DNA of 64,000 nucleotides from an uncultured Alphaproteobacteria bacterium (GCA_910577205.1 CAJTMA010000001.1:137840-201839); one strand, 5' to 3'. Shown: positions 10,041-47,694, counted from the stretch's first letter. Notes: a model not told the origin generated them from the letters alone. A program made the numbers and translations.

Positions 10041-10070
10041 AGGAAAGCAAGAAGTGCTTTCCTTTTTTTA
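10041..10070 (+). terminator. Rho-independent terminator after gyrB.
   Basis: aggaaagca ... tgctttcct hairpin followed by TTTTTT. Confidence 0.7.
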
Positions 10071-29209: not shown

Positions 29210-29220
29210 TACTAATTGTA

Positions 29221-29258
29221 AAACAAAACCGTCCGGCGGATAAACCGGACGGTTTTCA
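29221..29258. terminator. Bidirectional terminator (ccgtccggcggataaaccggacgg with flanking T/A runs). Part of inverted-repeat arm A.
   Basis: Hairpin with U-tracts on both strands. Confidence 0.7.
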
Positions 29259-30016
29259 GATGACGGTAAGCTGTGCCTTATTTTGAAAGTTCAGTTATCC
29301 GCTTTGCCGCAATCCGTCCCCGAAAATTCTCTCACTTTTTTCAGGGATAAAAACTTTATCAGGCTTCCAAAACCACGCTGACATTAAGCTGATAATAGTC
29401 CAGCAGATAACCGATATCCATATTGGTTATGGCGGCGCGTCCGCTTTCGATTTTCTCTAGACTTTTAAAGTTGACTTTGGTTTCGCGGCAGACTTGCTCC
29501 CGGCTGATGTTGCGCTGCGAGCGTATCATTAGCAGCCAAATGCCGAGCGTCCGCCCGATGGTGGTTTGCAAATCTTTGGGTGTGATTTGCAGCGTTACTT
29601 TTTCTAACATTCCAAGCTCCTGTTTTGTTTTGGGATATCATAAAATCCCTACCTAACAATTCCGACTATATTTGCTGTTTCGGCAGCTGTCGCAACCTCA
29701 CAACAAAAAGTCTCATTGCTTATCTCAACAAAACAATTTTCAAATTGTTTTGTTTTCGCAGCCCCTTAATTTTAAGGGGAGGTTAGGTAGGGATTAATTT
29801 CTCCAAACCCTGTAAATTAAAACAAAAACCGCCTTAAATTTTAAGGCGGAGGAGCTGAAAAACTGCCAATAACAGTCAGTCTTATTCGTGCTTACGCCTT
29901 ATATCGACCACTCCCCCGAAAAGGAGGATATTTTTTTATTGGAGATGTTTTTCAGACACCACAACCGATCTCCCGGCTGCGAGAATTATATTAGGTGATT
30001 ATTTTTATTTTGCAAT
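29222..30016. repeat. Arm A of an imperfect large inverted repeat. Contains an XRE HTH gene plus ~400 bp upstream. Roughly 85-90% identity to the reverse complement of 36339-37270.
   Basis: Aligned by eye: terminator, HTH gene, gagcttggaatg start context, and upstream attgcaaaataaaaata...ggttgtggtgtctgaaaaacatct block. Confidence 0.75.
29359..29610 (-). CDS. XRE-family helix-turn-helix transcriptional regulator, 83 aa, copy A.
   Basis: ISREQVCRETKVNFKSLEKIESGRAAI HTH. 79 of 83 residues identical to the 36878-37129 product. Confidence 0.75.
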   Translation of the reverse strand: MLEKVTLQITPKDLQTTIGRTLGIWLLMIRSQRNISREQVCRETKVNFKSLEKIESGRAAITNMDIGYLLDYYQLNVSVVLEA

Positions 30017-30184
30017 CAAAATATTGCGATTGTTTGGTTGGGAGGAAAGTCGGCCAATGGGGGGAATATTGGGAAAGGCTGAGGTCGCAGCAGAAAAAAG
30101 CGGCGCGGAGAGAGGTGAAGAATGTAAAGCCGAGTAACGATAACAGGCTGCTCAAAGACATGGCAACAGATACGGAGATATTTA

Positions 30185-30658
30185 TCAGAAATAGTTGTCA
30201 ATTATCGGGGCAAAGACTTCCACCATCTGTTTATATGCATCTTTTTTTACGCTCCAGACCAAATCCGGCGTTTCGCGGATATCAACCCAGCGGTATTCCT
30301 TAAACTCCGGTTCAGCTGTCTGCAAATTGATTTCTGTTTCGCTGCCTGTCAGATAGAACAATGACCAATATTGTTCCTGTCCATCGGTTAAAATACCGCG
30401 CTGGCTAAAAATATTTTTAACTTCCGGCGGAAATTCATAGCGTATCGGCTTTTCAATTCCGGCAATCCATTTTACGCTGTGCAACGAGGTTTCTTCAAAC
30501 AATTCGCGGGCTGCTGCCTGCTTAGGCGTTTCACCGGCTTCTATGCCGCCCTGCGGAAACTGCCAAAGATTGCCCTCGCCATTAATGCGGGCGCAAACCA
30601 AAACTTTTTTATCGTCCCGAAAAACGACCACCGCTGCATTTTTGCGAAAATTTGCCAT
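30185..30658 (-). CDS. rppH: RNA pyrophosphohydrolase (Nudix).
   Basis: Nudix box GG.E.GETP..AA.REL.EE. Alphaproteobacterial RppH-like N-terminus. 157 aa. Confidence 0.85.
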   Translation of the reverse strand: MANFRKNAAVVVFRDDKKVLVCARINGEGNLWQFPQGGIEAGETPKQAAARELFEETSLHSVKWIAGIEKPIRYEFPPEVKNIFSQRGILTDGQEQYWSLFYLTGSETEINLQTAEPEFKEYRWVDIRETPDLVWSVKKDAYKQMVEVFAPIIDNYF

Positions 30659-30660
30659 GC

Positions 30661-31833
30661 TTATTCCGCCACCAGATTAGAAACCGGAACTAAAGCAAAG
30701 GGTTTGGCAATCTCAGAAATGTTTTTCTCTTTCATTTCCTCATAACTTAATTGCGGCGAAAAGCTTTTTATCCATTCGCTTAAAGCCAAAACAACCACTG
30801 GCTTGGGTTCGGTTACGATAATCACCCGTCCTTTGTCACGGGCAATTTGTTCTGCCTGTTGCAATTTTTCTTCGGTTGACTGGCGGGAGTAATCGTTTTC
30901 GATAACAATATCAGCTTTTGCGCGGACTAAACGATCGATTTTAAGCTGAGCCAAACCGTCATGGTTTACAGAATCAATAACCAGCAAACCGCGATTTTTT
31001 AACTCTTGCATAAGTGTTGCCAATTGTTCGGCATTGCTTTCATCTGCAACGCCTGAGCGAACAATGATACCGCCGGAGGGTACTTTTGCGCCGATAACTT
31101 TTTCAAGCCGGCTGCGATTTTCATCAAGGCTGGCCGTCAAACTCATGGAAAGCGGTCCGCTGTCTGATTTCAGATAATCTTCTGACGGCAGCAGAAAGTC
31201 CATATAGGTTTCGTGTCCCTCTGTTCTGGCTTCCGCCAATTGTTTTTCCAAAACCGGGGCATAAGGCGAAAAGGAGAAGCTGACTTCCGCAGGCAGCCCT
31301 TTGTTTATCAGACGGGCGTGGGCTGGGTTAGCCCCCAGATTGGCAATCACCACCGCAACACGGTTAAAACGGGGCATAACCTGAACTTTGCGGCCATAGG
31401 TTTCCCATGGGCGCTCTTTGCCGTCTGTCTTCGGCAGCAGCAATCCGTTTTTTTCTTCAACCAAATTATCTCTTGGCTGAATGTCCGGCAAAGGCTTTTG
31501 CCCATCGGCATCGCCCAGTTTTCCCAAATTAGGAATACGGCTTAAAACAGCTTCAAGGCTGTGCGGATTTTCCGAGGCGGCCTCTGCCTGCGCTTCTTGG
31601 GTTGGCGCATTTTTCACTTTTTCAGGCGTTTCTTGTTTTTTTACCCTGTCTGGCAGCGTGATTATGTATTTGGGCGATTTGTTATGCGTGTCATACATAA
31701 TCCTGTCAATTTTTGACAGATAAACTGGTTCGCTTTTCTTGCTGGCAAACAAATATCCCAGTCCGGCCATTCCCGCCAAAGTCAGCAGGATAACCAGAAA
31801 CAGCGTTTGTTTTTGCCGCAGAGTTTCAATCAA
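30661..31833 (-). CDS. Divergent polysaccharide deacetylase family protein (YibQ-like).
   Basis: RVAVVIANLG block and position downstream of ctpA, as in many alphaproteobacteria. N-terminal TM. Confidence 0.6.
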   Translation of the reverse strand: MIETLRQKQTLFLVILLTLAGMAGLGYLFASKKSEPVYLSKIDRIMYDTHNKSPKYIITLPDRVKKQETPEKVKNAPTQEAQAEAASENPHSLEAVLSRIPNLGKLGDADGQKPLPDIQPRDNLVEEKNGLLLPKTDGKERPWETYGRKVQVMPRFNRVAVVIANLGANPAHARLINKGLPAEVSFSFSPYAPVLEKQLAEARTEGHETYMDFLLPSEDYLKSDSGPLSMSLTASLDENRSRLEKVIGAKVPSGGIIVRSGVADESNAEQLATLMQELKNRGLLVIDSVNHDGLAQLKIDRLVRAKADIVIENDYSRQSTEEKLQQAEQIARDKGRVIIVTEPKPVVVLALSEWIKSFSPQLSYEEMKEKNISEIAKPFALVPVSNLVAE

Positions 31834-31836
31834 CGT

Positions 31837-33150
31837 TTAGTTTCCTTTTTCTTCCAAGCCCTGATTGTATAAATTCAACGCCTTAACCAAATCAATTGCG
31901 CGGGACAACTGGTAGTCTTTTGCCAGTTCTTCGGCTTCAGCTTTTCTTTGGTCTGCAGTTTTGCCTTTTTTATCGCCGGCGGTTTCGTTTTTCAGCGCGT
32001 TGCTGAATTCGGCCTCGCTGAAACCAACGCCGGTGTCGATAATTTCAACTTTAGCCGGTTTGACCTCAATATCGGGTTCAATGCCTTTGGCCTGAATAGA
32101 ACGTCCGGACGGCGTATAATAGCGGGCAGTGGTTAATCTCATCGCGCCGAATTTGCCAAGCGGGATAACTGTCTGCACCGAACCTTTGCCGAAAGATTTT
32201 TCGCCAAGGATAATGGCGCGTTTATGGTCTTGCAATGCACCGGCAACAATTTCAGAAGCAGAGGCTGAGCCGTCATTAATCATAACCACTATCGGCAGTC
32301 CTTTGGCAATATCACCCTCTTTGGCGGTGTATTTGACGGTGTCTTCCTCATTGCGTGACCGGGTGGAAACGATTTCGCCTTTGTCAAGGAACAAGTCTGA
32401 AACATTAACCGCCTGATCTAACAAACCGCCGGGATTATTGCGTAAATCAATAACCACGCCTTTTAATTTCTCGCCGTGTTTTTTCTTGGCTTCCTTAATT
32501 GCTTTGGCAATCATATTGTCAACATCATCGCTGAAAGATGAAATGCGGATATAAATCACGTCATCAGCTTTAATGCTGTGTTTGACGGATTGGATTTTGA
32601 TTTCCTCGCGTTTGAGGGTAACTTCCAGCGGCTTCTCATTAAGACGGCGGATTGTCAGCTTGACTTTGCTGCCGATTTTGCCGCGCATTTTATCTACCGC
32701 GTCGTTTAAGGTCATGCCCATAACGGCTTCATCATCAATATTCGTAATGTAGTCACCGGGCTTTAATCCGGCTTTGGAAGCAGGGGTGTCGTCTATCGGC
32801 GACACGACTTTTACCACGCCGTTTTCCATGGTGACCTCAATTCCCAAACCGCCGAATTTGCCTTTGGTTTGTTCGCTCATGTATTTGAAGCTCTGGTCGT
32901 CTAAAAAGCTGGAATGCGGATCTAATGCCGATAACATCCCGTTAATCGCAGATTCAATCAGTTTTTTATCTGTAACATCTTCCACATAGGACACTTTTGC
33001 CCGCTCCATAACCTCGCCAAAGAGATTTAACATCTCGTAGGTGTCGGCATCGGCTGCCGGAGTTTTAGCATTTTTTGCCGCTTGTGACATCGGCGATGCC
33101 ATCATCAGGCATAAGAGTGAAACAGTAAATAATGATATTCTTTTCCGCAT
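31837..33150 (-). CDS. ctpA: Carboxy-terminal processing protease (S41).
   Basis: PDZ plus S41 motifs (GGLGIE, RNNPGG, SASASE). I chose MRKRISLF as the start in preference to the ORF-track extension. Confidence 0.9.
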   Translation of the reverse strand: MRKRISLFTVSLLCLMMASPMSQAAKNAKTPAADADTYEMLNLFGEVMERAKVSYVEDVTDKKLIESAINGMLSALDPHSSFLDDQSFKYMSEQTKGKFGGLGIEVTMENGVVKVVSPIDDTPASKAGLKPGDYITNIDDEAVMGMTLNDAVDKMRGKIGSKVKLTIRRLNEKPLEVTLKREEIKIQSVKHSIKADDVIYIRISSFSDDVDNMIAKAIKEAKKKHGEKLKGVVIDLRNNPGGLLDQAVNVSDLFLDKGEIVSTRSRNEEDTVKYTAKEGDIAKGLPIVVMINDGSASASEIVAGALQDHKRAIILGEKSFGKGSVQTVIPLGKFGAMRLTTARYYTPSGRSIQAKGIEPDIEVKPAKVEIIDTGVGFSEAEFSNALKNETAGDKKGKTADQRKAEAEELAKDYQLSRAIDLVKALNLYNQGLEEKGN

Positions 33151-33163
33151 ATTTTTTTCCTTA

Positions 33164-34426
33164 CTAATTTGCAAACCACGAAACCGGGTTAACCGGGTGA
33201 TTTTGTTTACGCAGTTCCATATAAAGCTTGGCATCGCTGTCACCAGGCATTAAGCCGACGGGCTCTCCTGCCAGCAGCAGCTGCCCCAGTTCACAATCTA
33301 TCGTATCCAATCCGGCCAGCAAAGAGGTGTAGCCTTTGCCGTGTTCGATAATAATCAGATTGCCGTAACCGCGGAACGGACCGGCAAAGATGACTGAGCC
33401 GTCAAACGGCGCGATAACCTGCGCCTGCGGACGGGTTTTGATAATAATGCCTTTGGAGCTGACGCCTTTGGCGGTTTCCTGTCCGTAAGCCGTGACAATC
33501 TGCCCTCTGGCCGGCCGCGACAGTTTACCCCGCGCTTTTACAAAATTATCCCCGATTTCATTTATAACCTCGGGTTTGAATTTAATCAAGTCGGCAGTTT
33601 TCACTTGTTCACGCTTTTGATTTTCCTCAGCTTCTTTTCTTCTCTGCTCTTCAAGCGCAGCCAAACGCCGGCGTTCTTCTTCCTGTTTGCGGCGCTTTTC
33701 CTGCTGTTGCTTTTCCAGACGGCTGAGCAAATCGCGCAAGTTTTGTGCTTCGCCGGCTAATTTTTGAACTTTTTTCTTAGCTTGTTCGCTTTTGACTTCC
33801 ACCACATTTCGCAGCTTGGATTTTTTCTGAACCAGCGTTTTCATTTGTTCATGCTCGGCTTCCAAGTTTTTTTTCTGCTTAACAATACGGGCTACTTGGG
33901 CTTCCACACGTTTTTTCTGGAGTTCGATTTTTTCCAACTCCTTACGCAAGCGGGAGGCGTTCTCTTCCAAATATGGCACTGTTTCGCGCAGCAGCATGGC
34001 ACTGCGGATGATTTCCACCGGGCTCAGGGGCTGCACAAACAAAGCTTCTGTCGGCTTGAGCGCCAAGTTTTGCAAAGCAGCCAGTGTTTTTATCAGGTTT
34101 TCGTCTTCTGAAGAAAAGTTGCTTTCCGCCGTTTTTAAATCTGCTGAAAGCTGTTCAAGCTCCGCCTCCATTTTGGAAAGCGTTTCTTCGTTATTCTGTA
34201 TCAGCTTGGCAGACCTAATCATCTGCTGGTTAACTTTTTTCAATTCATCGTTAATCTGGGTGGCTTGCTCCTGCAATCGCTGATGTTCCAGATTTTGCGC
34301 TTTAACCTGCTGCTCAACCTGCTCCAAGTCCTGACGAGAAATTTTTTCGGCGCGAACTGACCCAAGCATGAGGCCAAACAGCCCCATACTTACCATAATC
34401 AGTCTGTTCAAGCGCCGAAAAGTCAT
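33164..34426 (-). CDS. Murein hydrolase activator EnvC-like (coiled coil plus M23/LytM domain).
   Basis: Long coiled coil (QQ/EE/KK-rich). C-terminal M23 fold (GIII...G..V.A...G.V). Confidence 0.8.
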   Translation of the reverse strand: MTFRRLNRLIMVSMGLFGLMLGSVRAEKISRQDLEQVEQQVKAQNLEHQRLQEQATQINDELKKVNQQMIRSAKLIQNNEETLSKMEAELEQLSADLKTAESNFSSEDENLIKTLAALQNLALKPTEALFVQPLSPVEIIRSAMLLRETVPYLEENASRLRKELEKIELQKKRVEAQVARIVKQKKNLEAEHEQMKTLVQKKSKLRNVVEVKSEQAKKKVQKLAGEAQNLRDLLSRLEKQQQEKRRKQEEERRRLAALEEQRRKEAEENQKREQVKTADLIKFKPEVINEIGDNFVKARGKLSRPARGQIVTAYGQETAKGVSSKGIIIKTRPQAQVIAPFDGSVIFAGPFRGYGNLIIIEHGKGYTSLLAGLDTIDCELGQLLLAGEPVGLMPGDSDAKLYMELRKQNHPVNPVSWFAN

Positions 34427-34430
34427 GCCG

Positions 34431-35966
34431 TTAGTTCTTAACCAGCAAAGAGTGTCCGTTCATTTCAGCCGGTTCGGGAATATCCAGCAACTGCAGCAAA
34501 GTCGGCGCAATGTCAGCCAAGCGCCCGTCTTTCATGGCGGTTACGTCTTTCGGACCGTTAACCAAAACAGCCTGAACTTTGCCGACAGTGTGAGCGGTGT
34601 AAGGTTCGCCGGTTTTCTCGTCAACCATCTTTTCGGCATTACCGTGGTCTGCGGTTACCAACAAGACACCGTCAACATCCTTAATGGCTTTAACGACGCG
34701 GCCGAGGCATTCGTCAACAGCGGCAACGGCTTTCAAAACCGCGTCCATTTTGCCGGTGTGCCCAACCATATCGCCATTGGCAAAATTACAGATAATCACG
34801 TCGAATTTTTTATTTTCAATCGCGTCAACCAGATTATCGGTTACTTCATAAACGCTCATTTCCGGCTTTAAGTCATAAGTAGCAACTTTCGGGCTGGGAA
34901 CAAGTATCCGGCTTTCGCCCGGAAATTCTTTTTCTTCGCCGCCGTTAAAGAAAAACGTGACGTGGGCATATTTTTCGGTTTCGGCAATGCGCAGCTGGGT
35001 CAAACCGTTTTCTGCAACAACTTCTCCGAAGATGTTTTTCAGAGCTTCCGGCCCAAACATGGTTTTCATGAAACGGTTATGGTCGACAGAGTATTCGGTC
35101 ATACCGACAGCCATTGATAAAGCAAAAGTTTTTTTGCGGGCAAAACCGTCAAATTCTTTATCTGCCAAGGCATATAAAATTTCACGGGCGCGGTCGGCGC
35201 GGAAATTCGCCATCAGAACTGCGTCACCGTCTTCAAAACCTTTATAGTCGCCGATAATGCAAGGAACGACAAATTCGTCAGTCACGCCGTCTTTATAAGA
35301 GGCTTCAACAGCTTCGGCAGAGGTTGCCGCGTGTTTGCCCTCGCCTAAGGCAATCGCATTATAGGCCGCTTCAACACGATCCCAGCGTTTATCGCGGTCC
35401 ATGGCATAAAAACGCCCGGAAACCGTCGCAACTTTTACACCGTTTAAGCCGGCAATGGCTTTTTCAAATTCTGCCAGATATTCTTTAGCAGATGACGGCG
35501 GGGTGTCACGGCCGTCCAAAAAGGCATGAACGTCTGTTTTGATATTGTTTTCTGCCAAAACTTTGCATAAAGCAACAATATGCTCCATTGAAGAATGCAC
35601 GCCGCCCGGGGACATCAAGCCCATCAAATGGCAGGTTTTGCCATTAGCCTGCAAATCGGCAATCAATTTTTGCAAAACAGAATTATCTTTAATGCTGCCG
35701 TCTTTAATGGCCTGGTCAATTCTCGGCAAATCCTGCATAACAACGCGGCCAGCACCCAAATTCATATGTCCGACTTCAGAGTTGCCCATCTGGCCTTCCG
35801 GCAAACCAACTGCCAGTCCATAGGTTTCAATCAGGCTGTGCGGATATTCATTCAGGCAGTTATGCCAGTTAGGCGTATGACCGTTTTCAATAGCGTTGTC
35901 AGCCGTCTTAGGTTCACGATAGCCCCAACCGTCCAGAATCAGCAGCATTACAGGTTTCTGTTTCAT
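34431..35966 (-). CDS. gpmI: 2,3-bisphosphoglycerate-independent phosphoglycerate mutase.
   Basis: LLILDGWG N-terminus, metalloenzyme core, ADHGN. 511 aa. Confidence 0.95.
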   Translation of the reverse strand: MKQKPVMLLILDGWGYREPKTADNAIENGHTPNWHNCLNEYPHSLIETYGLAVGLPEGQMGNSEVGHMNLGAGRVVMQDLPRIDQAIKDGSIKDNSVLQKLIADLQANGKTCHLMGLMSPGGVHSSMEHIVALCKVLAENNIKTDVHAFLDGRDTPPSSAKEYLAEFEKAIAGLNGVKVATVSGRFYAMDRDKRWDRVEAAYNAIALGEGKHAATSAEAVEASYKDGVTDEFVVPCIIGDYKGFEDGDAVLMANFRADRAREILYALADKEFDGFARKKTFALSMAVGMTEYSVDHNRFMKTMFGPEALKNIFGEVVAENGLTQLRIAETEKYAHVTFFFNGGEEKEFPGESRILVPSPKVATYDLKPEMSVYEVTDNLVDAIENKKFDVIICNFANGDMVGHTGKMDAVLKAVAAVDECLGRVVKAIKDVDGVLLVTADHGNAEKMVDEKTGEPYTAHTVGKVQAVLVNGPKDVTAMKDGRLADIAPTLLQLLDIPEPAEMNGHSLLVKN

Positions 35967-36494
35967 GTGTTTCTCTCTTTCAAAATGTTAGCCAGCGCAG
36001 ATTATACGCCGTTTTTTATCATCTAAAACTTTTTCGTATTATATATAATAAATGAGAATAAAAAAGCACTATTTTTATGCTTTATGCAGAAAATAAAACA
36101 TCTTACCCCAATAAATATATTTACGAGCGCTGAACGAATCAGGCTGATTAAACGGCGGTTGGGATGCGGACGAAAAATGTAAGCTAACAGCGACGGGGCT
36201 TGGGAATAACATTTTTCCCCTTAATTTTAAGGGGAGATAAAGAGAGGTTTAATATGAATAAAGTCTATTTTGCATGGATTCTTCGTCGCACAGCTTCTCA
36301 GAATGACGTTTTAGGAGGGGAGAGCAACCATAAAATATATTGCAAAATAAAAATATTCACCTAATATAATTTTCGCAGCCAAGAGATTGGTTGTGGTGTC
36401 TGAAAAACATCTTTCTTACTAAAATATCCTCCTTTCGGGGGAGTATACGATATAAGCCATTGGTCGAATAAGTATGACTGTCGTGAACAGTTGC

Positions 36495-36762
36495 GACCTA
36501 AAATATTCCCTTAAAACAATATTTAGCAAATAAGAAAAGTTTATAATGCGCCGTGCTTTTTAGCAGGCGCTACTGAGCGTTAGCGTCAATAAAAAGGACA
36601 AGCAGAATGAGCTTTTCTTGTTTGTCCTTCGGATTTGTGGTTAAAAAGTATCTGCGTCAGAAAACTCCTTGCAGGTAGCAGCAACTATCTGCGGCGTCGT
36701 TTTCTTAGCAGCTGACTTTTTACTCGCAAACTAAATGTTATTTTAAGGGAATATTTTAGGTC
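36495..36762. mobile_element. MITE-like non-autonomous element, 268 bp, with 32-bp terminal inverted repeats.
   Basis: gacctaaaatattcccttaaaacaatatttag (36495-36526) against ctaaatgttattttaagggaatattttaggtc (36731-36762). Absent from the corresponding site in arm A. TTGC on both flanks could be a target-site duplication. Confidence 0.55.
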
Positions 36763-36877
36763 ATTGCTCCTCCACCTTTTTCTAAAAAGGTGGTTTTGTT
36801 TTTAAAATCCTTTCTCTGCCTCCCCTTAATTTTAAGGGGAGGTATGGAGGGGATTAATAAACCTAAAGGAGCTTGGA

Positions 36878-37129
36878 ATGTTAGAAAAAGTAACGCTGCA
36901 AATCACACCCAAAGATTTGCAAACCACCATCGGGCGGACACTCGGTATTTGGTTGATGATGATACGCTCGCAGCGCAACATCAGCCGGGAGCAAGTCTGC
37001 CGCGAAACCAAAATTAATCCGAAAAGTCTGGAGAAAATTGAAAGCGGCCGTGCTGCCATAACCAATATGGATATCGGTTACCTGCTGGATTATTATCAGC
37101 TTAACGTCAGCGTGGTTTTGGAAGCCTGA
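36878..37129 (+). CDS. XRE-family helix-turn-helix transcriptional regulator, 83 aa, copy B.
   Basis: Near-identical paralog of 29359-29610. RBS aaaggag. Confidence 0.75.
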   Translation: MLEKVTLQITPKDLQTTIGRTLGIWLMMIRSQRNISREQVCRETKINPKSLEKIESGRAAITNMDIGYLLDYYQLNVSVVLEA

Positions 37130-37230
37130 TAAAGTTTTTATCCCCGAAAAGCGGGAGAGAATTTTCGGGGACGGATTGCGGCAAAGCGATAACTGAACGT
37201 TCAAAATAAGGCACAACTTACCGCAATCTG

Positions 37231-37270
37231 AAAACCGTCCGGTGTTATCCGTCGGACGGTTTTGTTTTTA
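37231..37270. terminator. Bidirectional terminator shared by the HTH gene (+) and recR (-).
   Basis: ccgtccggtgttatccgtcggacgg hairpin with T-runs on both strands. Confidence 0.7.
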
Positions 37271-37861
37271 TAACAACTTACGAGAATTCAGCGCCAGCTG
37301 TATTGTGCCTTCATCCATATAATCCAGTTCAGCACCCATCGGGATACCTTGAGCCAGGGTGGTGATTTTTACCCCGCTGTCTTTTAAGCGAGAAACCAGA
37401 TAGTGGCAGGTTATCTGCCCGTCAACTGTTGCAGGAAGCGCCAGAATAATCTCCGACACTTCATCGCGCGCCACACGCGAGAGCAGGCTGTCAATATTCA
37501 AATCTTCAGGCGCAACGCCGTCCAATGCTGACAGAATACCGCCCAGCACATGGTATTTACCCTTAAAAAAGGATACTCTTTCCATCGCCCACAAATCTGC
37601 CACATCTTGAACAACGCATAATTGTCGGCCGTCACGCTTATCTGACGCGCAGACAGAACAAGGGCTTTGTGTATCAAAATTGCCGCAAATTTCGCAGGTT
37701 TGCACTTTTGTTGCCACCTCGTTAAGAGATTCAATCAGCGGCAAAAGCAGATTTTCGCGCTTTTTCAGCAATTGCAGCACAATCCGCCGGGCTGAACGCG
37801 TTCCCAGAGATGGCAGTTTGGCGATTTGTTTCGCCAGTTTTTCAATTTCTTTTCCGGCCAC
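37268..37861 (-). CDS. recR: Recombination protein RecR.
   Basis: C4 zinc finger CxxC...CxxC plus Toprim. 197 aa. Confidence 0.95.
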   Translation of the reverse strand: MAGKEIEKLAKQIAKLPSLGTRSARRIVLQLLKKRENLLLPLIESLNEVATKVQTCEICGNFDTQSPCSVCASDKRDGRQLCVVQDVADLWAMERVSFFKGKYHVLGGILSALDGVAPEDLNIDSLLSRVARDEVSEIILALPATVDGQITCHYLVSRLKDSGVKITTLAQGIPMGAELDYMDEGTIQLALNSRKLL

Positions 37862-37873
37862 GGCTGTATTCTC

Positions 37874-38194
37874 TTAAAATGGCAGTTTCAGACCGCCCAG
37901 ATTTAAGCCGCCGGTTACATCTTTCATGCCATCGGCCATAACCGTGTCAACTTTGGCGTGGGCATCATTATAGGCCGCCAAAATCAAATCTTCCAGAATG
38001 TCAACTTCTTCAGGGACAAGCAGGGATTTATCCAATTCTACTTTTTTAGCTTCAAATTTGCCGTTCAGGGTCACTTTAACCAAACCGCCGCCGCTTGTTC
38101 CGGTAATTTCCTGCTGCGCCAGTTTCTCCTGAGCTTCTTCCATTTTTTTCTGCATCATTTGCGCTTGTTTCATTATTCCCTGAATATTCATCAT
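37874..38194 (-). CDS. ybaB: Nucleoid-associated protein YbaB/EbfC.
   Basis: MMQKKMEEAQEKL...GGGLVKVTLNG pattern. Sits between dnaX and recR. Confidence 0.9.
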   Translation of the reverse strand: MMNIQGIMKQAQMMQKKMEEAQEKLAQQEITGTSGGGLVKVTLNGKFEAKKVELDKSLLVPEEVDILEDLILAAYNDAHAKVDTVMADGMKDVTGGLNLGGLKLPF

Positions 38195-38196
38195 GT

Positions 38197-39915
38197 TTAA
38201 TTTTCCTCATCATAAATGATTTCATTATTATCGGCACCGAAATCCAAATCTGACGAATCGTCATCAGTTTCGGTCATTTTGCGGGTTGCGGTTTCGATTT
38301 TGGCGCCTTTAAATTCCGCCATAATCGCTTTAACCAACGGATATTCCATAATGTTACGTTTTTCTTCTTCCTCTGCCGCTTTTTCCATATCGGCCAGTGT
38401 CACGCCCAATGCGCCGCGGGTAAGTTCAATTTTCCACGTCAGGCCGGTGGCCTCCGTCAGCGTTTTATGCAGATTGAGAATAAAATCGGGGTGGATTTTC
38501 TCGGATACGGCCATTTTTATCAGGCCGTTGCTGAATTCGGAAATTGAAACATCATTCTTAATGGCATATTCAACCAGAAGCATTTTTTTCTGCTCAAGGT
38601 AAGCAACCAAATCGCTGACTTGGTTAAACACCAGTTTATCCCCGGTTGGCTGAATAGCGGAGGCAGGCTCCGCAGCCGGAGCCGCCCTAAAAACCGGTGT
38701 TGTTCCCGGAGAACGGACAGAGGGAACTACAGCACTTAAATTAGAGTTTTTTTTTACGTCGTTCAAAAGCTCGTATGGCGTTGGCAAATTAGCAGAGTAA
38801 GCCACGCGAATCAAAATCATTTCCAACGCGTCAATCTGCACCGGAGCAACCTGTAATTCGCCCAGCCCTTTAATCATCATCTGCCAGATTTTTGACAAGA
38901 CGGCAATTGAAACTTTGGCGTTCAAACGCTGGCAAAGTTCTCTTTCGGCTTCGCTTAAAGACGAATCGTTGATAAAGCTGGGAACAAGTTTAGTTTTCGC
39001 CAACAGATGGGTAATATTTATTAAATCTTGCAACAGAGAGGTCGGGTTTGCCCCGTTTTTATATTGCTCCTGCAATTTGAGAATGGTTTCTTTAGTGTCG
39101 CCGCTGACAAGCTTTTCAAAGAGTTCAAAAGTCTGGTTGCGGTCGGCCAAGCCAATCATCTCTTTAACGACATCGGTTTTAACAACGCCGGCACCGAGAG
39201 AGATTGCCTGATCAAGCAAAGACAAACCGTCACGCGCCGATCCGTCAGCCGCTTTGGCAATAATATGCAATGCTTCGTTATCGGCTTTCAAATTTTCGGC
39301 AGCAACAATCTTATTAAAGAGCTTCATCAGGTCTTCTATTGTCAGGCGTTGCAAATCAAAGCGCTGGCAACGTGACAAGACAGTTACCGGAACTTTGCGG
39401 ATTTCGGTCGTGGCAAAAATAAACTTAACGTGCGCCGGCGGCTCTTCCAGCGTTTTCAGCAAAGCGTTAAATGCGTTTTTGGAAAGCATATGAACTTCGT
39501 CGATGATATAAATTTTATAGCGGGCATTGGTCGGCTTATAACGTACGCCGTCCAAAATCTCGCGGATATCATCTACGCCGGTACGAGAAGCCGCGTCAAG
39601 CTCCAAAACGTCAATATGGCGGTCAGCGGCAATAGCTTTACAATTCTCACACACGCCGCAGGGATGAATCGTCGGCCCACCATTGCCATCAAGCCCCGTA
39701 CAGTTCAAAGCGCGGGCAATCAGACGGGCGGTGGTGGTTTTGCCCACGCCGCGGATACCGGTTAAAATGTAAGCATGGTGCAAACGGTTGTTTTTAATGG
39801 CATTGGTAAGGGTTTGCACCAAGGCATCCTGCCCAAGCAAGTCATTAAAACTCTGCGGGCGGTATTTGCGGGCCAGAACCACATATTGATTATCTTTATT
39901 TTCTTCTTCTGCCAT
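38197..39915 (-). CDS. dnaX: DNA polymerase III subunits tau/gamma.
   Basis: AAA+ GIRGVGKTT, zinc module CGVCENC. I chose MAEEENK as the start because the ORF-track extension runs through the SRP RNA gene. An A9 run at 38747-38755 is a possible frameshift site. Confidence 0.93.
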   Translation of the reverse strand: MAEEENKDNQYVVLARKYRPQSFNDLLGQDALVQTLTNAIKNNRLHHAYILTGIRGVGKTTTARLIARALNCTGLDGNGGPTIHPCGVCENCKAIAADRHIDVLELDAASRTGVDDIREILDGVRYKPTNARYKIYIIDEVHMLSKNAFNALLKTLEEPPAHVKFIFATTEIRKVPVTVLSRCQRFDLQRLTIEDLMKLFNKIVAAENLKADNEALHIIAKAADGSARDGLSLLDQAISLGAGVVKTDVVKEMIGLADRNQTFELFEKLVSGDTKETILKLQEQYKNGANPTSLLQDLINITHLLAKTKLVPSFINDSSLSEAERELCQRLNAKVSIAVLSKIWQMMIKGLGELQVAPVQIDALEMILIRVAYSANLPTPYELLNDVKKNSNLSAVVPSVRSPGTTPVFRAAPAAEPASAIQPTGDKLVFNQVSDLVAYLEQKKMLLVEYAIKNDVSISEFSNGLIKMAVSEKIHPDFILNLHKTLTEATGLTWKIELTRGALGVTLADMEKAAEEEEKRNIMEYPLVKAIMAEFKGAKIETATRKMTETDDDSSDLDFGADNNEIIYDEEN

Positions 39916-39934
39916 TAAAATTCTTCTTAAAAAA

Positions 39935-40025
39935 GGTGGAGGACGAATGACCTTAACCGCTTTCGTTACGGCTGCTTCCTTCCGGACCTGACCGGGTTGG
40001 CGAAGAGTTAACCCACCATCCTCCA
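39935..40025 (-). ncRNA. ffs: Signal recognition particle RNA (4.5S RNA).
   Basis: Minus strand contains GGUCAGGUCCGGAAGGAAGCAGCC (conserved domain IV). 5' ggaggatgg pairs with 3' cgtcctcc. Followed by TTTTTT. Classic position upstream of dnaX. Confidence 0.85.
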
Positions 40026-40127
40026 TAAATGTGATTTTCAGCCTTAAACGCCGGAAATCCTGACGGGATTAATATCGTTCATATCCGGCGATTTTTCAAG
40101 GAAAAAATCAATAATTAACACCTGAGC

Positions 40128-41597
40128 TTAATCAGGGACGACAATATTAAGCTTTTTCAGCCCTTCTTTGACGATTTCCCGCTCCTGCGCTCCCGGCACA
40201 TAATCCAGCGGCTGGCTCTCTAACCCTAAAGGACGGCCGTAAATTAAGGTTTGGGCGGTGTTGGTATCTTTGCCGAAAATATGCGGCGCTTGATAGCCTG
40301 CTTCAGGAATAAAGCTATCAGCCATATCAGCGGCATCTCCAGCATTAAACTTTTTCGGCGCGTCATCAACAATTACGTCACCCGCCGGGCGGACTTCGAC
40401 AATATCCAGGCTATGCTGGTTTTGACCGTTATCCAACAGGCGGAATGCGCCGTTAATTCCGACATAGCCATCCGAATTGGCAATGGTTTCATTTAAATCG
40501 CCGCCGCTTTTCTTTGACAATGCCGAAGCCAAAGCCACGGCATCGTAGCCCATAGAATACAAGCTGCTGGGGCGCTCGCCGAACAGCTCGGTATATTTGT
40601 TGGCAAAATAGCCGCTATGCGACCGGGACAAAGCCGGATACCAAGCGCCCCGCAATGTGGATTCCGTATTGAGGCGGGTGTTTTCCCACACTGATGTTCC
40701 TATAAACTTAACCTGTGGCGCATATACGTCATAGTAGCCAAACATTGCCACCGCAGCTTTTAACCCAGCGCCGGATTCAGGGATTAACACCGTGTCAAAA
40801 TCAACTTCGCCCAATGTATCGGTCTTGTTCAGGCGTTCCAGCACTTTTGCGGCAGAACCGTCACCGGCAGCCGCTTTGTTTTTTAAGCCGGCTTTCAGGT
40901 TTTGCAGGCGGCCGGTTCGCGTATTATAATCCGACATTTGTTTGGTTACGGCAGAAAAGTCGGTTGTTCCCGGCGTATAAAAGCCGATACGGGTAATTTT
41001 AACGCCGTTTTTAGCCGCAGATTTTACAGCGGCGCGGGCAACGGCTATTCCGGTTTTGTTATCGGGAATCAACAAGGCAAAACGGGAGCGCCCCTGCGCA
41101 GCGGTATAAGAAATTATGCGGTCGACCTGTTCTTCGACCATCAGCCCTAACGTATAAATTCCCGGCTGAAGCACATTAGAACCGGTGTTAAACGCAATGA
41201 CCGGAATGTTGTGGGATTTGGCCTGTTCCGCAACAGCTTCAACCGATGAGCTTTTTAACGGGCCGATAATCAACTTGCTTTTTTGGTTAATTGCATTGGC
41301 AACGGCAACCCTCGCCCCTTCCGGCGTACCCTTGGTGTCATAATATTGCAGAATCAGATTAGGTTCGCGGACATCTTCCAAGGCTATCATGGTCGCATTT
41401 TTTAAGCCGTTCCCCTGCCGAGCCGCATCCCCGCTCAAGGGCAGCAAAACGCCGACGCGGAAATTGCCGTCCGTTCCCAGATTAACTTCGCTGATTTCGG
41501 TAGAGGACACATCGGCACCGCCATTGGTGCTGACCGTTGTCCGGCAGCCGGCAAGCAGCCCGAAGGCTATTAGAAAACTTATTTTTTTTAACACTTG
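40128..41597 (-). CDS. LpoA-like lipoprotein (penicillin-binding protein activator/LppC family, periplasmic-binding fold).
   Basis: Lipobox LLAGC after a GTG/TTG start near 41594-41600. Type I PBP fold. Divergent from rsmI with yraN downstream, as in the E. coli lpoA-rsmI-yraN locus. ORF-track N-terminal extension is probably false. Confidence 0.55.
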   Translation of the reverse strand, partial: QVLKKISFLIAFGLLAGCRTTVSTNGGADVSSTEISEVNLGTDGNFRVGVLLPLSGDAARQGNGLKNATMIALEDVREPNLILQYYDTKGTPEGARVAVANAINQKSKLIIGPLKSSSVEAVAEQAKSHNIPVIAFNTGSNVLQPGIYTLGLMVEEQVDRIISYTAAQGRSRFALLIPDNKTGIAVARAAVKSAAKNGVKITRIGFYTPGTTDFSAVTKQMSDYNTRTGRLQNLKAGLKNKAAAGDGSAAKVLERLNKTDTLGEVDFDTVLIPESGAGLKAAVAMFGYYDVYAPQVKFIGTSVWENTRLNTESTLRGAWYPALSRSHSGYFANKYTELFGERPSSLYSMGYDAVALASALSKKSGGDLNETIANSDGYVGINGAFRLLDNGQNQHSLDIVEVRPAGDVIVDDAPKKFNAGDAADMADSFIPEAGYQAPHIFGKDTNTAQTLIYGRPLGLESQPLDYVPGAQEREIVKEGLKKLNIVVPD

Positions 41598-41667
41598 CAA
41601 TTTATCCCAAAATAGAAAATCATATACCAAAGAAACTAGCTTAAAAATTTTTGAATGTAAAGTACAG

Positions 41668-42507
41668 ATGATGAAAAACGGCTTATATATCGTGGCAACA
41701 CCTATCGGCAATTTGGCGGATATTTCAGCCAGAGCCAAAGAGGTTTTGGCTGAGGCAGACGCAATTGCCTGCGAAGACACCCGCGTGACCCGCAAACTAT
41801 TTTCCCTTTTGGGGTTAAGCGCCGCAAAGCCCTTTATCACCTGCCAGGATCACAATGAAGAACAACAGGCGCAATCCCTTATTGATTTGGTCAAGGAAGG
41901 AAAAACGCTGGCGCTTGTCAGCGATGCCGGATCCCCGCTGATTTCTGACCCGGGGTATAAGCTTATCCGCCGCTGCCGCGAGCAAGGCGTTAAAGTCTGG
42001 ACAGTGCCGGGCTGCTGCGCGGTTATATCCGCCTTGCAATTATCCGGTTTGCCAACCAACCGCTTTATGTTCGCCGGTTTTATCCCTAATAAAGATAAGG
42101 CCAGATCAGACCTTTTCAATGAGCTGAAGAATATTAACACAACCCTGGTATTTTATGAAACAGCCCCGCGAATTGTTAAGACGCTTACGGCGGCGGCCGG
42201 CGTCTTCGGCAACAGAGAAATTGCCGTTGCCCGGGAAATCACCAAACTATACGAAGAATGTGTCAATGGCACGGCGGAAGAGCTTATTGCCCATTTTGAA
42301 GAAAATCCGCCCAAAGGGGAGATGGTGCTGATGGTTGCGCCGCCGGAAGAGATTGACCGCGAAAAGATTGATACTGACGCTTTGCTGCGGGAGAAACTTG
42401 GCCTGATGCCATTAAAAACCGCCGTCAAGGAAGTGGTGGAACAGACAGGCCTGAACAAAAATGATGTTTATGCGCAAGCTTTGAAAATTAAAAATGAAAA
42501 CCTGTAA
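41668..42507 (+). CDS. rsmI: 16S rRNA (cytidine1402-2'-O)-methyltransferase.
   Basis: LYIVATPIGNL N-terminus. Tetrapyrrole-methylase fold. Start taken at the MMKNG codons. Confidence 0.9.
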   Translation: MMKNGLYIVATPIGNLADISARAKEVLAEADAIACEDTRVTRKLFSLLGLSAAKPFITCQDHNEEQQAQSLIDLVKEGKTLALVSDAGSPLISDPGYKLIRRCREQGVKVWTVPGCCAVISALQLSGLPTNRFMFAGFIPNKDKARSDLFNELKNINTTLVFYETAPRIVKTLTAAAGVFGNREIAVAREITKLYEECVNGTAEELIAHFEENPPKGEMVLMVAPPEEIDREKIDTDALLREKLGLMPLKTAVKEVVEQTGLNKNDVYAQALKIKNENL

Positions 42508-42844
42508 AACCGGAAAATTTGCCGAGCGGTTGGCGTGTTTATATCTGTTTTGCAAAGGCTACAACATTGTCGCCCGCAATCAGATAACAGGAAAAGGAAC
42601 AGGCGCAGGAGAGGTTGACATTGTTGCCCGCAGAGGCAAAACCTTGGTTTTTATTGAAGTGAAGAAAAGGCAAAACGGCGAAAAAGCCGCTTATGCTATT
42701 TCCGAGCAGCAGAAAGCGCGAGTTCGCCGGGGTGCGGAAGCTTTTCTTAACCGTCATCCGGAACTGCAAAATTCAGATATTCGTTTTGATGCAGTTTTAG
42801 TGGTTTTTCCTTTTTCGTTTACTCATATAAAAAATGCTTTCTAA
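42494..42844 (+). CDS. yraN: YraN family (UPF0102) endonuclease-like protein.
   Basis: GE.DI.A......VFIEVK.R motif. Overlaps the rsmI stop. Confidence 0.8.
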   Translation: MKTCKTGKFAERLACLYLFCKGYNIVARNQITGKGTGAGEVDIVARRGKTLVFIEVKKRQNGEKAAYAISEQQKARVRRGAEAFLNRHPELQNSDIRFDAVLVVFPFSFTHIKNAF

Positions 42845-43037
42845 AAACCAACAAAAATACAACCTATGAGAGCAAAATAAAATATTCCAAAAAAGTATAA
42901 ACAAGCGTGAGCATGACTTACACCCCTGTTTGGTTAGCTTGTTGATATAATTTTCTTTTTCAATTCTAAGTTAATTCCCTATTTTTTCTAAATATTGTAC
43001 TTATATTAGAGGTTAGTCATATAGAAAGGATAAAACC

Positions 43038-43502
43038 ATGATTGTCACAAGTTCTGCAATTCAAAATGGCTATTTTAACGACAAATACGGCAAAAGAGGA
43101 ACAGAAATTATAAAGAAAATACCTCTCGTTTCCTTTCCGTTCACTATCAGCGAAGCGCCGGAAGGCACAAAATCTTTTGCCTGGCTTCTGGAAGATGAAG
43201 ACGCTATTCCTGTTGCCGGTTATTCGTGGATTCACTGGATGGCGGTTAATAACACCTGTCCCGATGTGCCAGAAGATTACAGCCGGGAGGCCACCGATAT
43301 TGTTCAAGGCATAAACAGCTGGAATAAAATCGGTTATGGCGGAATGACCCCGCCCAACAAAACGCACCGTTATGATTTGCACGTTTATGCGTTGGATACG
43401 GAATTAGACCTTAAACCGGGATTTAGAATCGAAGATTTCTATCGGGCTGTCGATAAGCATATGCTTGCCAGCTATACGCTAAGCGGAAAATATACCTATT
43501 AA
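43038..43502 (+). CDS. YbhB/YbcL family PEBP-like protein.
   Basis: HRYDLHVYALD motif typical of bacterial PEBP. 154 aa. Confidence 0.75.
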   Translation: MIVTSSAIQNGYFNDKYGKRGTEIIKKIPLVSFPFTISEAPEGTKSFAWLLEDEDAIPVAGYSWIHWMAVNNTCPDVPEDYSREATDIVQGINSWNKIGYGGMTPPNKTHRYDLHVYALDTELDLKPGFRIEDFYRAVDKHMLASYTLSGKYTY

Positions 43503-44245
43503 TCCAAGCTGTTTTCAATCAAACGGTCAAGATTAATCCGTTCGCTGCTATTGTAGCCGTCAAAGTTTTCTTGAATTTTTTCAGGCTGTTTGGCGGTTTC
43601 TTTTGCTTTTTTGGATTTAACCTGAGGCTGAGCCAGCTTTTCAAACAATTCATCAGCGTCATTTGATTTTTTAGGCGCTTCTTTTTCTTCGGCTTTTTTA
43701 TCTTCCTCTTCAACCGTTTTGCCGCTGACTTCTGCAGCCTTATTGCGAATGGTATCCAAGGTTTCTTTCGGAATCAGGTTTTCAATCGGTTTGGCAAATT
43801 CGCCGGCCAGTTGGAAATAGCGGGAGTTTTTAAAGGTTTCCGGCTGGCGGTCTTTAGGCATCATCCAGCTGATGAGAATGTTTAGCAGAATAACCAGTAA
43901 AAAGGCGCGCATAATGCCAAAAAACAAGCCCAAAACCCGGTCAACCGAGCTTAACTTGCTGGAACGGACTTTACCGACAATATTTCCGGTCAGCAAAATC
44001 CAGATTACCATAAATAAAATCAAGATAAAAATAGACGTAACAACGCCGGCAATCATCCCGTTGGAGATATATTCGCGGGTTATCGGCGTGAAAACCGGCA
44101 GCAGATAGATGATGGCGGCAGAACCAAGCACCCAGCCGATAATCGACAGCACTTCTTTTATCAAACCGCGGCTTAAGGCTATCAGCGCCGATAAACCAAG
44201 GATGATTAAGATAATAATATCAAGATTATTCAAAGGCTGAGACAT
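43499..44245 (-). CDS. cvpA: CvpA family membrane protein.
   Basis: N-terminal TM helices DIIILIILGLSALIALSRGLIKEVLS. Sits upstream of radA. Confidence 0.75.
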   Translation of the reverse strand: MSQPLNNLDIIILIILGLSALIALSRGLIKEVLSIIGWVLGSAAIIYLLPVFTPITREYISNGMIAGVVTSIFILILFMVIWILLTGNIVGKVRSSKLSSVDRVLGLFFGIMRAFLLVILLNILISWMMPKDRQPETFKNSRYFQLAGEFAKPIENLIPKETLDTIRNKAAEVSGKTVEEEDKKAEEKEAPKKSNDADELFEKLAQPQVKSKKAKETAKQPEKIQENFDGYNSSERINLDRLIENSLD

Positions 44246-44254
44246 TTTTCTATC

Positions 44255-45625: not shown

Positions 45626-45626
45626 T

Positions 45627-46391: not shown

Positions 46392-46409
46392 TTTCTGTCT
46401 TCCTTTTGC

Positions 46410-47201: not shown

Positions 47202-47264
47202 GGGATATTTCTTTCGTAGATTAATCTGATTTTGCGCACATCTTAGAGCTTTTAAGCTGAAAAA

Positions 47265-47693
47265 TCAACCGGCTTCTGATTTTTCATCACAAGCTAAAGT
47301 TAATTTATGAGCCGCGGACAATTCAAAGGGATAAAGTTTTATTTTTTTTACGGGATACCCACAGATAAGCGTTGTTTCCGGCGCAGGCAAGCGCTCGATT
47401 TCCGCCAGGGAGGAAACCAATTCCGCAACAAGAAAGACTTCTGTTTCAGCTTGTGCCGGAGGGGTGACAATCCCAACGCCCCGCACTTCCAACAATCCTT
47501 TGATTGTTTCGGGACAAGAGGCAACCGGCCGGTTTGCCCCGCGGCGGATATCCGTGCGGTCATCAGCAATCAGAACAGCCCCTTTTTCTAAAATCATCCG
47601 CAAGGCCAAATCTGATTTGCCGCTGCCGGAAGCGCCGGTCAAAAGTATTCCCCGGTTATTCAGCGCAATACAGGTCGCGTGGATGTTTTCCAT
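47265..47693 (-). CDS. hprK: HPr kinase/phosphorylase, short alphaproteobacterial form (C-terminal domain only).
   Basis: GILLTGASGSGKSDLAL P-loop and LEVRGVGIV motif. 142 aa. Confidence 0.75.
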   Translation of the reverse strand: MENIHATCIALNNRGILLTGASGSGKSDLALRMILEKGAVLIADDRTDIRRGANRPVASCPETIKGLLEVRGVGIVTPPAQAETEVFLVAELVSSLAEIERLPAPETTLICGYPVKKIKLYPFELSAAHKLTLACDEKSEAG

Positions 47694-47694
47694 A

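Follow-up and report, generated by a model that had tools for sequence, protein, structure and literature searches.

A dispersed regulator unit with a structured leader RNA lies at both ends of an inverted operon in an uncultured gut alphaproteobacterium

Introduction

Homologous recombination between inverted repeats is an already known source of chromosomal inversions in bacteria, with tufA and tufB of Salmonella, rrn operons and copies of insertion sequences (IS) as described cases. For the inverted tufA and tufB genes, RecA-dependent recombination yields both gene conversion and inversion (PMC8262849). Here we describe a 64,000-nt stretch of DNA from an uncultured Alphaproteobacteria bacterium (GCA_910577205.1, CAJTMA010000001.1:137840-201839; hereafter the window, meaning the whole stretch), in which a block of housekeeping genes running from gpmI to rppH is bracketed by two inverted copies, arm A and arm B, of a small transcription unit that combines a structured leader RNA with a gene for an 83-aa XRE-type helix-turn-helix (HTH) protein. 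As in the described cases, long inverted homologous sequences surround an inverted block, and as for tufA and tufB there are signs of gene conversion between the copies, the breakpoints here falling exactly on the repeats. In contrast to those systems, the repeat is no universal housekeeping gene or insertion sequence; it is a small regulator unit restricted to one lineage, and the inverted block measures merely 6 kb. What is unusual about this locus is therefore not the inversion but the repeat, a self-contained, lineage-restricted regulator unit with a structured RNA that lies outside Rfam.

The unit also shares features with systems other than inversions. Like mobile insertion cassettes and elements resembling miniature inverted-repeat transposable elements (MITEs), it is multi-copy and intergenic, carries a small open reading frame (ORF) that does not encode a transposase, has a common 3’ end, and is absent at two sister-species sites. 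Unlike these, it has no terminal inverted repeats, target-site duplication or identifiable partner transposase (a partner elsewhere in the genome was not searched for), and it varies at its 5’ boundary, where tandem 146-nt repeats and a pyrimidine-rich stretch occur. Its leader resembles those of riboswitches and attenuators in being structured and directly upstream of the ribosome binding site (RBS), in having two mutually exclusive predicted folds and an anti-Shine-Dalgarno (anti-SD) segment that covaries with the Shine-Dalgarno (SD) sequence, and in the terminator that follows the structured domain; it differs in matching no Rfam 15 family, and in that neither predicted fold competes with the terminator stem. 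The predicted fold of the protein is like that of other small XRE HTH proteins, such as HipB antitoxins, C-proteins and ClgR, but no toxin, restriction-modification or other partner gene lies next to it. Lastly, the order of promoter, structured RNA, intrinsic terminator and small protein gene is the same as in type III, ToxIN-like toxin-antitoxin systems; here, however, the RNA lacks the tandem repeats of such antitoxins, an HTH protein takes the place of the endoribonuclease, and PADLOC yields weak, generic HTH matches.

Results

The inverted repeat and the block between its arms

A repeat scan, a MAFFT alignment and blastn of the window against itself agree in pairing arm A with arm B over two inverted blocks, which bears out the inverted repeat reported in a first-pass annotation of this DNA. 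The 3’ block (29220-29621 against 37268-36867; 403 nt, 92.6% identity) spans the RBS, the 83-codon ORF, about 130 nt of 3’ untranslated region (UTR) and the terminator hairpin, while the 5’ block (29872-30016 against 36481-36339; 145 nt, 84% identity) covers the promoter and leader. The longest exact match between the arms by blastn is 73 bp (29549-29621 against 36867-36939), and the DNA between the blocks is non-homologous and differs in length (arm A, about 250 nt; arm B, about 385 nt). Consequently, the 85-90% identity throughout that had first been estimated has to be replaced by a separate value for each block, and the match does not run continuously through some 400 bp of upstream leader: the leader homology is real, but between the arms it amounts to the 145-nt block. 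With both blocks aligning, the similarity is not limited to the ORF of about 250 bp either. The two proteins, HTH_A and HTH_B, are identical at 80 of their 83 residues, one more than first counted, the differences being L27M, V46I and F48P. The repeat in arm A reaches further upstream, to about position 30165, as seen only against other genomic copies, and arm A occupies the entire gap between the stop codons of PBP1 (29209) and rppH (30185). Furthermore, a 32-nt pattern from the promoter region occurs exactly twice in the window, where none would be expected by chance, and apart from the arm pair, blastn of the window against itself finds no repeat, direct or inverted, at E<=1e-10.

The genes between the arms, all on the minus strand, are gpmI, an envC-like M23 peptidase gene, the S41 peptidase gene ctpA, a yibQ-like Polysacc_deac_2 gene and the NUDIX gene rppH; Pfam confirms the names given in the first-pass annotation, and it places PBP1 on one flank and recR-ybaB-dnaX on the other. 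Both HTH genes point outward, as had been noted. To place this arrangement we compared it with contigs and loci denoted here by L-numbers, same-species copies having been collected by looking up the exact sequences of the two HTH proteins and their gene neighbours. These data are nearly all short-read metagenome assemblies, in which many contigs stop inside the module. In the sister-species contig L112, whose proteins are 90% (gpmI), 91% (recR) and 88% (PBP1) identical to those of the window, the order is PBP1→gpmI→envC→ctpA→yibQ→rppH, followed by convergent recR, ybaB and dnaX, and the junction spacers of 214 and 158 nt hold no HTH gene and no module. The PBP1→gpmI junction recurs, likewise without a module, in L111 (gpmI 90%) and L119 (gpmI 81%), and in L021 (RecR 85%) recR is followed after 40 nt by convergent rppH, again without a module. 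Since these four contigs have one or both junctions of the opposite order, and the window carries a module at each of the two junctions, the gpmI–rppH block has been inverted in place with both breakpoints on the arms. The synteny comparison that had been proposed as a check thus turned up sister contigs with the opposite segment orientation and no HTH copy at these junctions.

Within the species, about 10 distinct contigs in addition to the window read rppH-module-PBP1 across arm A, with the hybrid contig L106 as sole exception, and about 8 distinct contigs plus the window, which span arm B from the gpmI side, read gpmI-module-recR. Neither rppH-module-recR nor PBP1-module-gpmI occurs among the same-species contigs that span either junction, all of these being assemblies, not raw reads. 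A search for both orientations, also suggested at the outset, therefore returned the window’s orientation only. As all spanning same-species contigs share it, we consider the inversion to be fixed, not switching.

Several contigs carry hybrid junctions, in which the 5’ flank of one site is joined to the 3’ flank of another (L007/L197, L010, L015, L020 and L106), such as M20-module-PBP1 and rppH-module-smpB. These could be real strain-level rearrangements or assembly chimeras. Because each was found in only one or two contigs, from short-read assemblies in which the ORF blocks of different copies can be nearly the same, they were not counted as proof of ongoing rearrangement.

A separate observation concerns the DNA next to arm B, where the window (37268-48147) was compared with L021 and L023-L059. 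In most relatives recR is followed by convergent cvpA-radA-mlaFE, while in the window and L021 that block lies beyond rsmI-lppC-dnaX-ybaB-recR. The difference suggests that the rsmI-recR block was inverted at an earlier time in this clade, and more distant relatives show further rearrangements of it.

A dispersed family of HTH units

Contigs of the same species, from metagenomes and metagenome-assembled genomes (MAGs), show the HTH unit between at least six different pairs of flanks. Given as 5’ flank and 3’ flank, these are rppH and PBP1 (arm A), gpmI and recR (arm B), an S41 peptidase and two small ORFs followed by rpmG, an M20 peptidase / 112-aa ORF and NMO, an S49 peptidase and a short-chain dehydrogenase, and a DnaJ-domain protein and smpB. 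All copies have the same 3’ end, just past the AAAACCGTCCGG-N8-CCGGACGGTTTT hairpin and beside the stop codon of a convergent gene. Their 5’ ends are ragged: most carry a pyrimidine-rich stretch of about 230 nt, beyond which lie 1 to 4.6 tandem copies of a 146-nt unit. Arm A retains the pyrimidine-rich stretch up to about 30165, and arm B has only a 36-nt fragment of the 146-nt unit. The number of tandem copies varies by site; the array upstream of the module at another site, in L002 (8857-9521), holds 4.6 copies with 90% matches.

Arm B is 96.3% identical overall to a copy at site 3, whereas its identity to arm A is 92.6% in the 3’ block; in that block both arms match the site-2 copy at about 95% identity. 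Because there are at least six sites, and the arms are not each other’s closest relatives, they do not represent a local duplication; they are two members of a dispersed repeat family confined to one gut alphaproteobacterial species. The initial description of an old inverted duplication of a regulator and promoter module was in this respect too narrow.

In a related species the HTH gene is 72-78% identical, its intact form encodes 87 aa, and it is found only between relA/spoT and DUF2062-acpS-lepB-rnc-era. The relA-DUF2062 copy is homologous to the unit in the window over the promoter, leader, ORF and 3’ terminator, and has no pyrimidine-rich stretch, tandem repeats or small insertions. The repeat is therefore the whole transcription unit of a gene that in the relative has the appearance of an ordinary one with a single locus, and that has been multiplied in the window’s species. 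One contig of the related species, L202 (contig_22824, 1-10261), is a near-perfect palindrome of era-rnc-lepB-acpS-DUF2062, the HTH gene and DUF2062-acpS-lepB-rnc-era, with one side frameshifted, and probably arose as an artefact when long reads were assembled; low-quality assemblies of this kind are the source of the frameshifted protein variants P0007, P0009 and P0010.

The family thus varies in presence and absence, with at least six sites here, none at the homologous sites of L112 and L021, and one locus in another relative. The unit contains no transposase, the 83-aa HTH ORF being its sole conserved ORF by Pfam (a partner elsewhere in the genome was, as said, not searched for). The ends of six copies and the empty sites of L112 show no terminal inverted repeats and no target-site duplication, although the empty-site comparison is weak since the intergenic DNA has diverged, with only the gpmI promoter region (about 130 nt) still aligning between the species. 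The HTH unit has therefore multiplied without recognisable transposition machinery.

The ORF allele, as defined by residues 27, 46 and 48 (LVF, MIP or LIP), differs between strains at one and the same site and is shuffled among sites in the metagenome assemblies; the arm A site, for instance, carries LVF in the window but MIP in L013 and LIP in L008. In a table of all copies, the sequence of the leader helix remains linked to the 5’ flank. Together, this is the pattern expected from gene conversion between copies.

A protein search of 185,579 species-representative genomes gave no relative of the HTH protein, and the window’s species and its repeats are evidently missing or unassembled in that set. 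For loci anchored on RecR, the nearest records are MAGs labelled ‘uncultured Alphaproteobacteria’, ‘proteobacterium’ and ‘Azospirillum sp.’. These loci identify the source as an uncultured alphaproteobacterium of the gut, which may belong to the group named RF32 in GTDB.

The HTH protein

Between copies, the ratio of nonsynonymous to synonymous substitution rates (dN/dS) is 0-0.11 at a dS of 0.12-0.33, and on this ground we regard the ORF as a genuine gene that purifying selection maintains. Judged by the same measure, the non-coding blocks, which are equally conserved, are constrained too. Pfam matches to HTH_31 and HTH_19 are borderline, HTH_31 reaching 30.9 bits in arm B and 26.5 bits in arm A against a cut-off of 27. 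The AlphaFold2 model has four helices, at a predicted local distance difference test score (pLDDT) of 82.8, and the predicted fold places the helix-turn-helix at residues 37-55. Among the PDB matches listed by Foldseek almost all are XRE-type HTH proteins (HipB, restriction-modification C-proteins, ClgR), with probabilities of 0.97-1.0 and TM-scores of about 0.5; a PDB search by sequence gave nothing below E = 0.4. The family comprises 14 clusters among 5.8 billion proteins, 69-99% identical. No conserved partner gene lies beside the HTH gene, the flanking genes being different at every site. A phage or defence origin was considered and rejected, as no relative was found in viral contigs and the matches in PHROGs, PADLOC and NCBIfam are weak and generic to HTH domains. 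The predicted fold would fit a DNA-binding regulator, possibly an autoregulator.

The leader RNA

From 5’ to 3’ the unit consists of a promoter-like element, the leader with its anti-SD segment and terminator, the HTH gene, the 3’ UTR, and a bidirectional terminator held in common with the convergent neighbour. The structured RNA, about 135 nt long, follows a conserved TTGCAA...TA(A)TAT element, and an intrinsic terminator closes it. The element may act as a promoter; in arm A it was not flagged by the promoter consensus scan and is proposed on the basis of its conservation. In minimal copies the RBS follows within about 20 nt of the leader terminator, and in arm A about 208 nt of extra DNA, including a palindromic hairpin element of about 50 nt, separates the intact leader from the RBS.

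RNAalifold, applied to nine distinct copies, predicts P1 with a GAGA loop, a 12-bp long-range P2, a 7-bp P3, P4, P5 and the terminator. The sequence of P3 is wholly different in each lineage, yet its complementarity is always kept. Across the nine copies 99.8% of cells are paired, with compensatory changes in 14 pairs and 48 cells; none of 500 shuffles matched the observed percentage paired, number of compensatory cells or covariation score, and register-shifted controls reached at most 10 compensatory cells. Moreover, the minimum-free-energy fold of the arm A sequence by itself equals the consensus structure (z = -3.95). The covariance model R1 scores 182.5 bits on arm A and finds arm B as two fragments of 99.7 and 41.9 bits. 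The proportion of canonical pairs is 97.9% in a model-fitted alignment of 16 diverse sequences, some of them leaders taken from six other contigs of the related group.

Outside the species, R1 matches at 80-110 bits six loci of other species of the same group, with four weaker matches (L049, L113, L061 and L038); the listed homologues are included in Table 1. Among the genes downstream of these leaders are some for small XRE-like proteins, others for Cys-rich proteins that are secreted, and one that is pilin-like. One further R1 copy in the window’s own species lies upstream of a 28-codon ORF, and 1.22 Mb of loci from other bacteria gave no match. No Rfam 15 family matches the leader, the signal recognition particle (SRP) RNA being the only one to pass the gathering threshold in the window, and permissive Rfam scans of three copies returned nothing reproducible: sRNA-Xcc1 (30.6 bits, below its threshold of 53, and confined to one copy) and RAGATH-25 (15.6 bits) were treated as chance matches.

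A separate MAFFT alignment of 13 sequences revealed an alternative fold on the same conserved segments. Directly 5’ of the terminator lies the anti-SD segment, which is complementary to, and covaries with, the SD region downstream. The pairs (anti-SD with SD) are AGCUCCU with AGGAGCU, UUAGCUCC with GGAGCUAA, GAACUCCC with GGGAGUUC, AACUUCC with GGAAGUU, and GAACAUCC with GGAUGUUC. In the homologous leaders each anti-SD segment fits its own RBS. Cognate segments share on average 6.69 bp of complementarity against 4.93 bp for non-cognate ones, and only 3 of 100,000 permutations reach the observed total. In the simplest model, the 5’ strand of P2 and the SD would compete for the anti-SD segment, and the SD would be released only where P2 forms. 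The leader may control translation of the HTH gene as well as termination.

We also considered P3 as a specificity code for each copy. This idea was set aside because further members of the leader RNA exist in related genomes, and stem variation together with conversion between paralogous leaders is the simpler account. Two strains of the single-locus species offer an observation on such exchange: L204 (4817-4977) and L205 (79-247) are about 100% identical over the promoter, ORF, 3’ UTR and flanks, and have the central 95 nt or so of the leader swapped for a version that is about 30% diverged and compensated in every helix, which looks like a conversion tract from another leader copy. For the 3’ UTR hairpins are predicted, with covariation too thin for a claim of functional RNA.

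In arm B the leader is disrupted. The 3’ strand of its P3 is mutated, reading CGTGAA where GTAAGAA would be needed, and no longer pairs, and a 268-nt MITE-like insertion interrupts P2; arm B in other strains is free of this insertion. Wherever present, the insertion is at least 98.9% identical, and at the same site it is present in some strains and absent in others, with L005 keeping merely a fused remnant of its two terminal repeats. Its independent mobility is unproven, since in the fetched loci it occurs only inside module leaders.

Other features of the window

The coordinates of all features are collected in Table 1. The terminator hairpin of arm A starts about 15 nt past the PBP1 stop codon, and the homologous hairpin of arm B was called by the terminator scan. 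The palindromic hairpin element of about 50 nt, with the core CCCCTTAA-NN-TTAAGGGG, has three copies in the window, two of which sit between a leader terminator and an RBS; these could be small repeat elements or binding sites of the HTH protein. Finally, the SRP RNA (39932-40027, minus strand, 60.9 bits) overlaps the first 95 nt or so of the longest dnaX ORF (38197-40026, minus strand), and the true start of dnaX therefore probably lies downstream of that of the 609-aa call.

Table 1. Features of the HTH units and leader homologues. Positions are those of the window unless a contig is named.
Feature	Position	Strand	Basis or remark
Segment inverted relative to sister species (rppH, yibQ-like, ctpA, envC-like, gpmI)	30185-35966	-	Pfam; synteny with L112, L111, L119, L021
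Arm A, complete HTH transcription unit	29220-30165	-	comparison with five other genomic copies (blastn, MAFFT)
Arm A 3’ bidirectional terminator hairpin, AAAACCGTCCGG-N8-CCGGACGGTTTT	29225-29256	.	sequence; 3’ end common to all copies
HTH_A, 83-aa XRE-type HTH protein	29359-29610	-	Pfam HTH_31 26.5 bits; dN/dS; AlphaFold2 and Foldseek
Arm A variable spacer, leader terminator to RBS	29611-29818	-	sequence; missing from minimal copies
30-nt AT-rich palindrome in arm A spacer	29726-29755
Palindromic hairpin element (about 50 nt) in arm A spacer	29761-29808
Arm A intact structured leader RNA (P1-P5 and anti-SD)	29819-29983	-	R1 182.5 bits; covariation; terminator scan (intrinsic terminator 29829-29849)
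Arm A promoter-like element: TTGCAA, 16 nt to TAATAT or 19 nt to TATAAT	29986-30015	-	conservation
Arm A pyrimidine-rich (69% C+T) upstream extension, common to copies at other sites	30017-30165	-	copy comparison
Arm B, HTH transcription unit copy, 5’-truncated, without pyrimidine-rich stretch	36339-37268	+	comparison with other genomic copies
Arm B upstream remnants: palindromic hairpin element (36216-36263) and 36-nt fragment (36272-36307) of 146-nt tandem unit	36216-36307	+
Arm B promoter-like element	36340-36371	+	32-nt pattern match
Arm B leader 5’ part (P1, 5’ strands of P2 and P3, P4, P5)	36372-36494	+	R1 99.7 bits
268-nt MITE-like insertion, 32-nt terminal inverted repeats	36495-36762	+	within 3’ strand of P2, disrupts leader
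Arm B leader 3’ part: anti-SD segment and intrinsic terminator (36772-36793)	36763-36803	+	terminator scan, R1
Arm B palindromic hairpin element (about 50 nt), CCTCCCCTTAATTTTAAGGGGAGG core, directly upstream of RBS	36806-36868	+
HTH_B, 83-aa XRE-type HTH protein	36878-37129	+	Pfam HTH_31 30.9 bits (cut-off 27)
Arm B conserved 3’ UTR and bidirectional terminator hairpin (37231-37263)	37130-37263	+	within a few nt of recR stop codon
Leader homologue, L052	18151-18311	-
Leader homologue, L024	66-225	-
Leader homologue, L040	4678-4847	+
Leader homologue, L043	11974-12137	-
Leader homologue, L039	1769-1929	-
Leader homologue, L065	5093-5243	-
Leader homologue, L006	18821-18984	+

Discussion

So how did the operon come to lie in reverse between two copies of a regulator unit? 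We think it probable that the dispersed family, through homologous recombination between its copies, inverted the 6-kb operon once in the past, and that the inversion is now fixed and is not a working switch. Starting from the ancestral order PBP1→gpmI→envC→ctpA→yibQ→rppH, followed by convergent recR, one copy would have landed between PBP1 and gpmI, and a second one, in the opposite orientation, between rppH and recR. A general, RecA-type crossover within the ORF/3’ block of about 400 bp could then have flipped the operon in place, giving the present arrangement with its outward HTH genes, in which the repeat would be both the scar of the event and the substrate for recombination. The length of the arms suffices for homologous recombination, with 403 nt at 92.6% identity and an exact stretch of 73 bp. 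Such recombination between the copies explains the inversion best, the mechanism and the order of events being inferred. Of the two possibilities raised in the first-pass annotation, a pair of sites that mediates inversion thus holds as a past event, given the sister-species synteny, and fails as an active switch, given the single orientation and the lack of a recombinase gene.

Several points weigh against this explanation. No contig shows the intermediate, in which both modules are present and the segment is un-inverted, which is why we infer, rather than observe, that the insertions came first and the inversion second. The unit has no clean insertion signature in the form of target-site duplications or terminal inverted repeats, and past the gpmI promoter, divergence of the intergenic DNA prevents alignment with the sister species. 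Furthermore, the comparison rests almost entirely on short-read metagenome assemblies, which break at the repeat or may mis-join, and the five hybrid junctions (L007, L010, L015, L020 and L106) are indistinguishable from assembly chimeras. Lastly, the same final arrangement would result if an enzyme encoded elsewhere had carried out a replicative transposition in one step.

That one-step scenario starts from one copy, located between rppH and recR. A transposase encoded elsewhere mobilises it, and it attacks the PBP1-gpmI spacer of the same chromosome, so that the second copy and the inversion arise together. The junctions fit, as those of the module’s 5’ end with rppH and of its 3’ end with recR would be old, and PBP1 and gpmI would flank the new ones; that the unit has multiplied in this species, and that all copies have the same precise 3’ end, agrees with it as well. 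It does not sit well with the ragged 5’ ends, or with the failure to find a transposase, terminal inverted repeats or target duplications. Moreover, the arms have different P3 helices (CCAATAA in A, TTCTTAC in B) and also different upstream parts, which would not be expected of fresh twins unless they were converted later. On account of these differences between the leaders and upstream parts, we favour two separate insertions followed by a crossover, and regard the one-step scenario as unlikely.

Turning to the other explanations, a local inverted duplication of one regulator gene, leaving the gene order ancestral and involving no inversion, is suggested by the adjacent and inverted position of the arms. 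With the same unit at four further sites, arms that are not each other’s nearest relatives, and the bracketed operon lying the opposite way in three related contigs, it is very improbable. We give still less credence to a programmed invertible segment (such as an inverton, a Hin/Fim-type switch or a shufflon) that flips to alter expression of the HTH genes or the operon. Inverted repeats do bracket the segment, and promoter-like elements face both inward and outward. However, the roughly 10 contigs over arm A and 8 over arm B have a single orientation, and Pfam, run on every ORF from PBP1 through to ybaB, finds no serine or tyrosine recombinase within the segment or next to it. The cargo, moreover, consists of a housekeeping operon, and instead of short sites of some tens of bp the arms are homologous modules, 0.4-0.9 kb in size and found at four other loci as well. 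Equally hard to credit is an assembly artefact, with wrong joins through the repeat and a true order equal to that of the sister species plus two inserted modules: short-read assemblies do frequently break in the repeat, and a few hybrid junctions exist, but the arms differ at about 7% of positions, enough for unique assembly, and the same joins recur across independent samples and assemblers while the alternative joins are never seen.

With recombination between dispersed copies as the preferred account, the locus offers a clean natural case of a small inversion, both breakpoints of which lie on dispersed copies of a regulator unit and not on insertion sequences or rRNA operons. In practical terms, the HTH-unit repeat is a spot where short-read metagenome assemblies of this organism break or go astray. 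The leader RNA is a concrete and testable candidate for a new class of regulatory RNA. Going further, it is conceivable, though we put this forward tentatively, that the leader is the founding member of an undescribed, riboswitch-like anti-SD/terminator RNA class in uncultured gut Alphaproteobacteria, and that the whole unit is a new kind of non-autonomous, self-regulating gene cassette, which spreads without a recognisable transposase and reshapes the chromosome through recombination between its copies. At the least, a lineage-specific gene that multiplies can restructure the genome that carries it, and the distinction between gene families and mobile elements becomes blurred.

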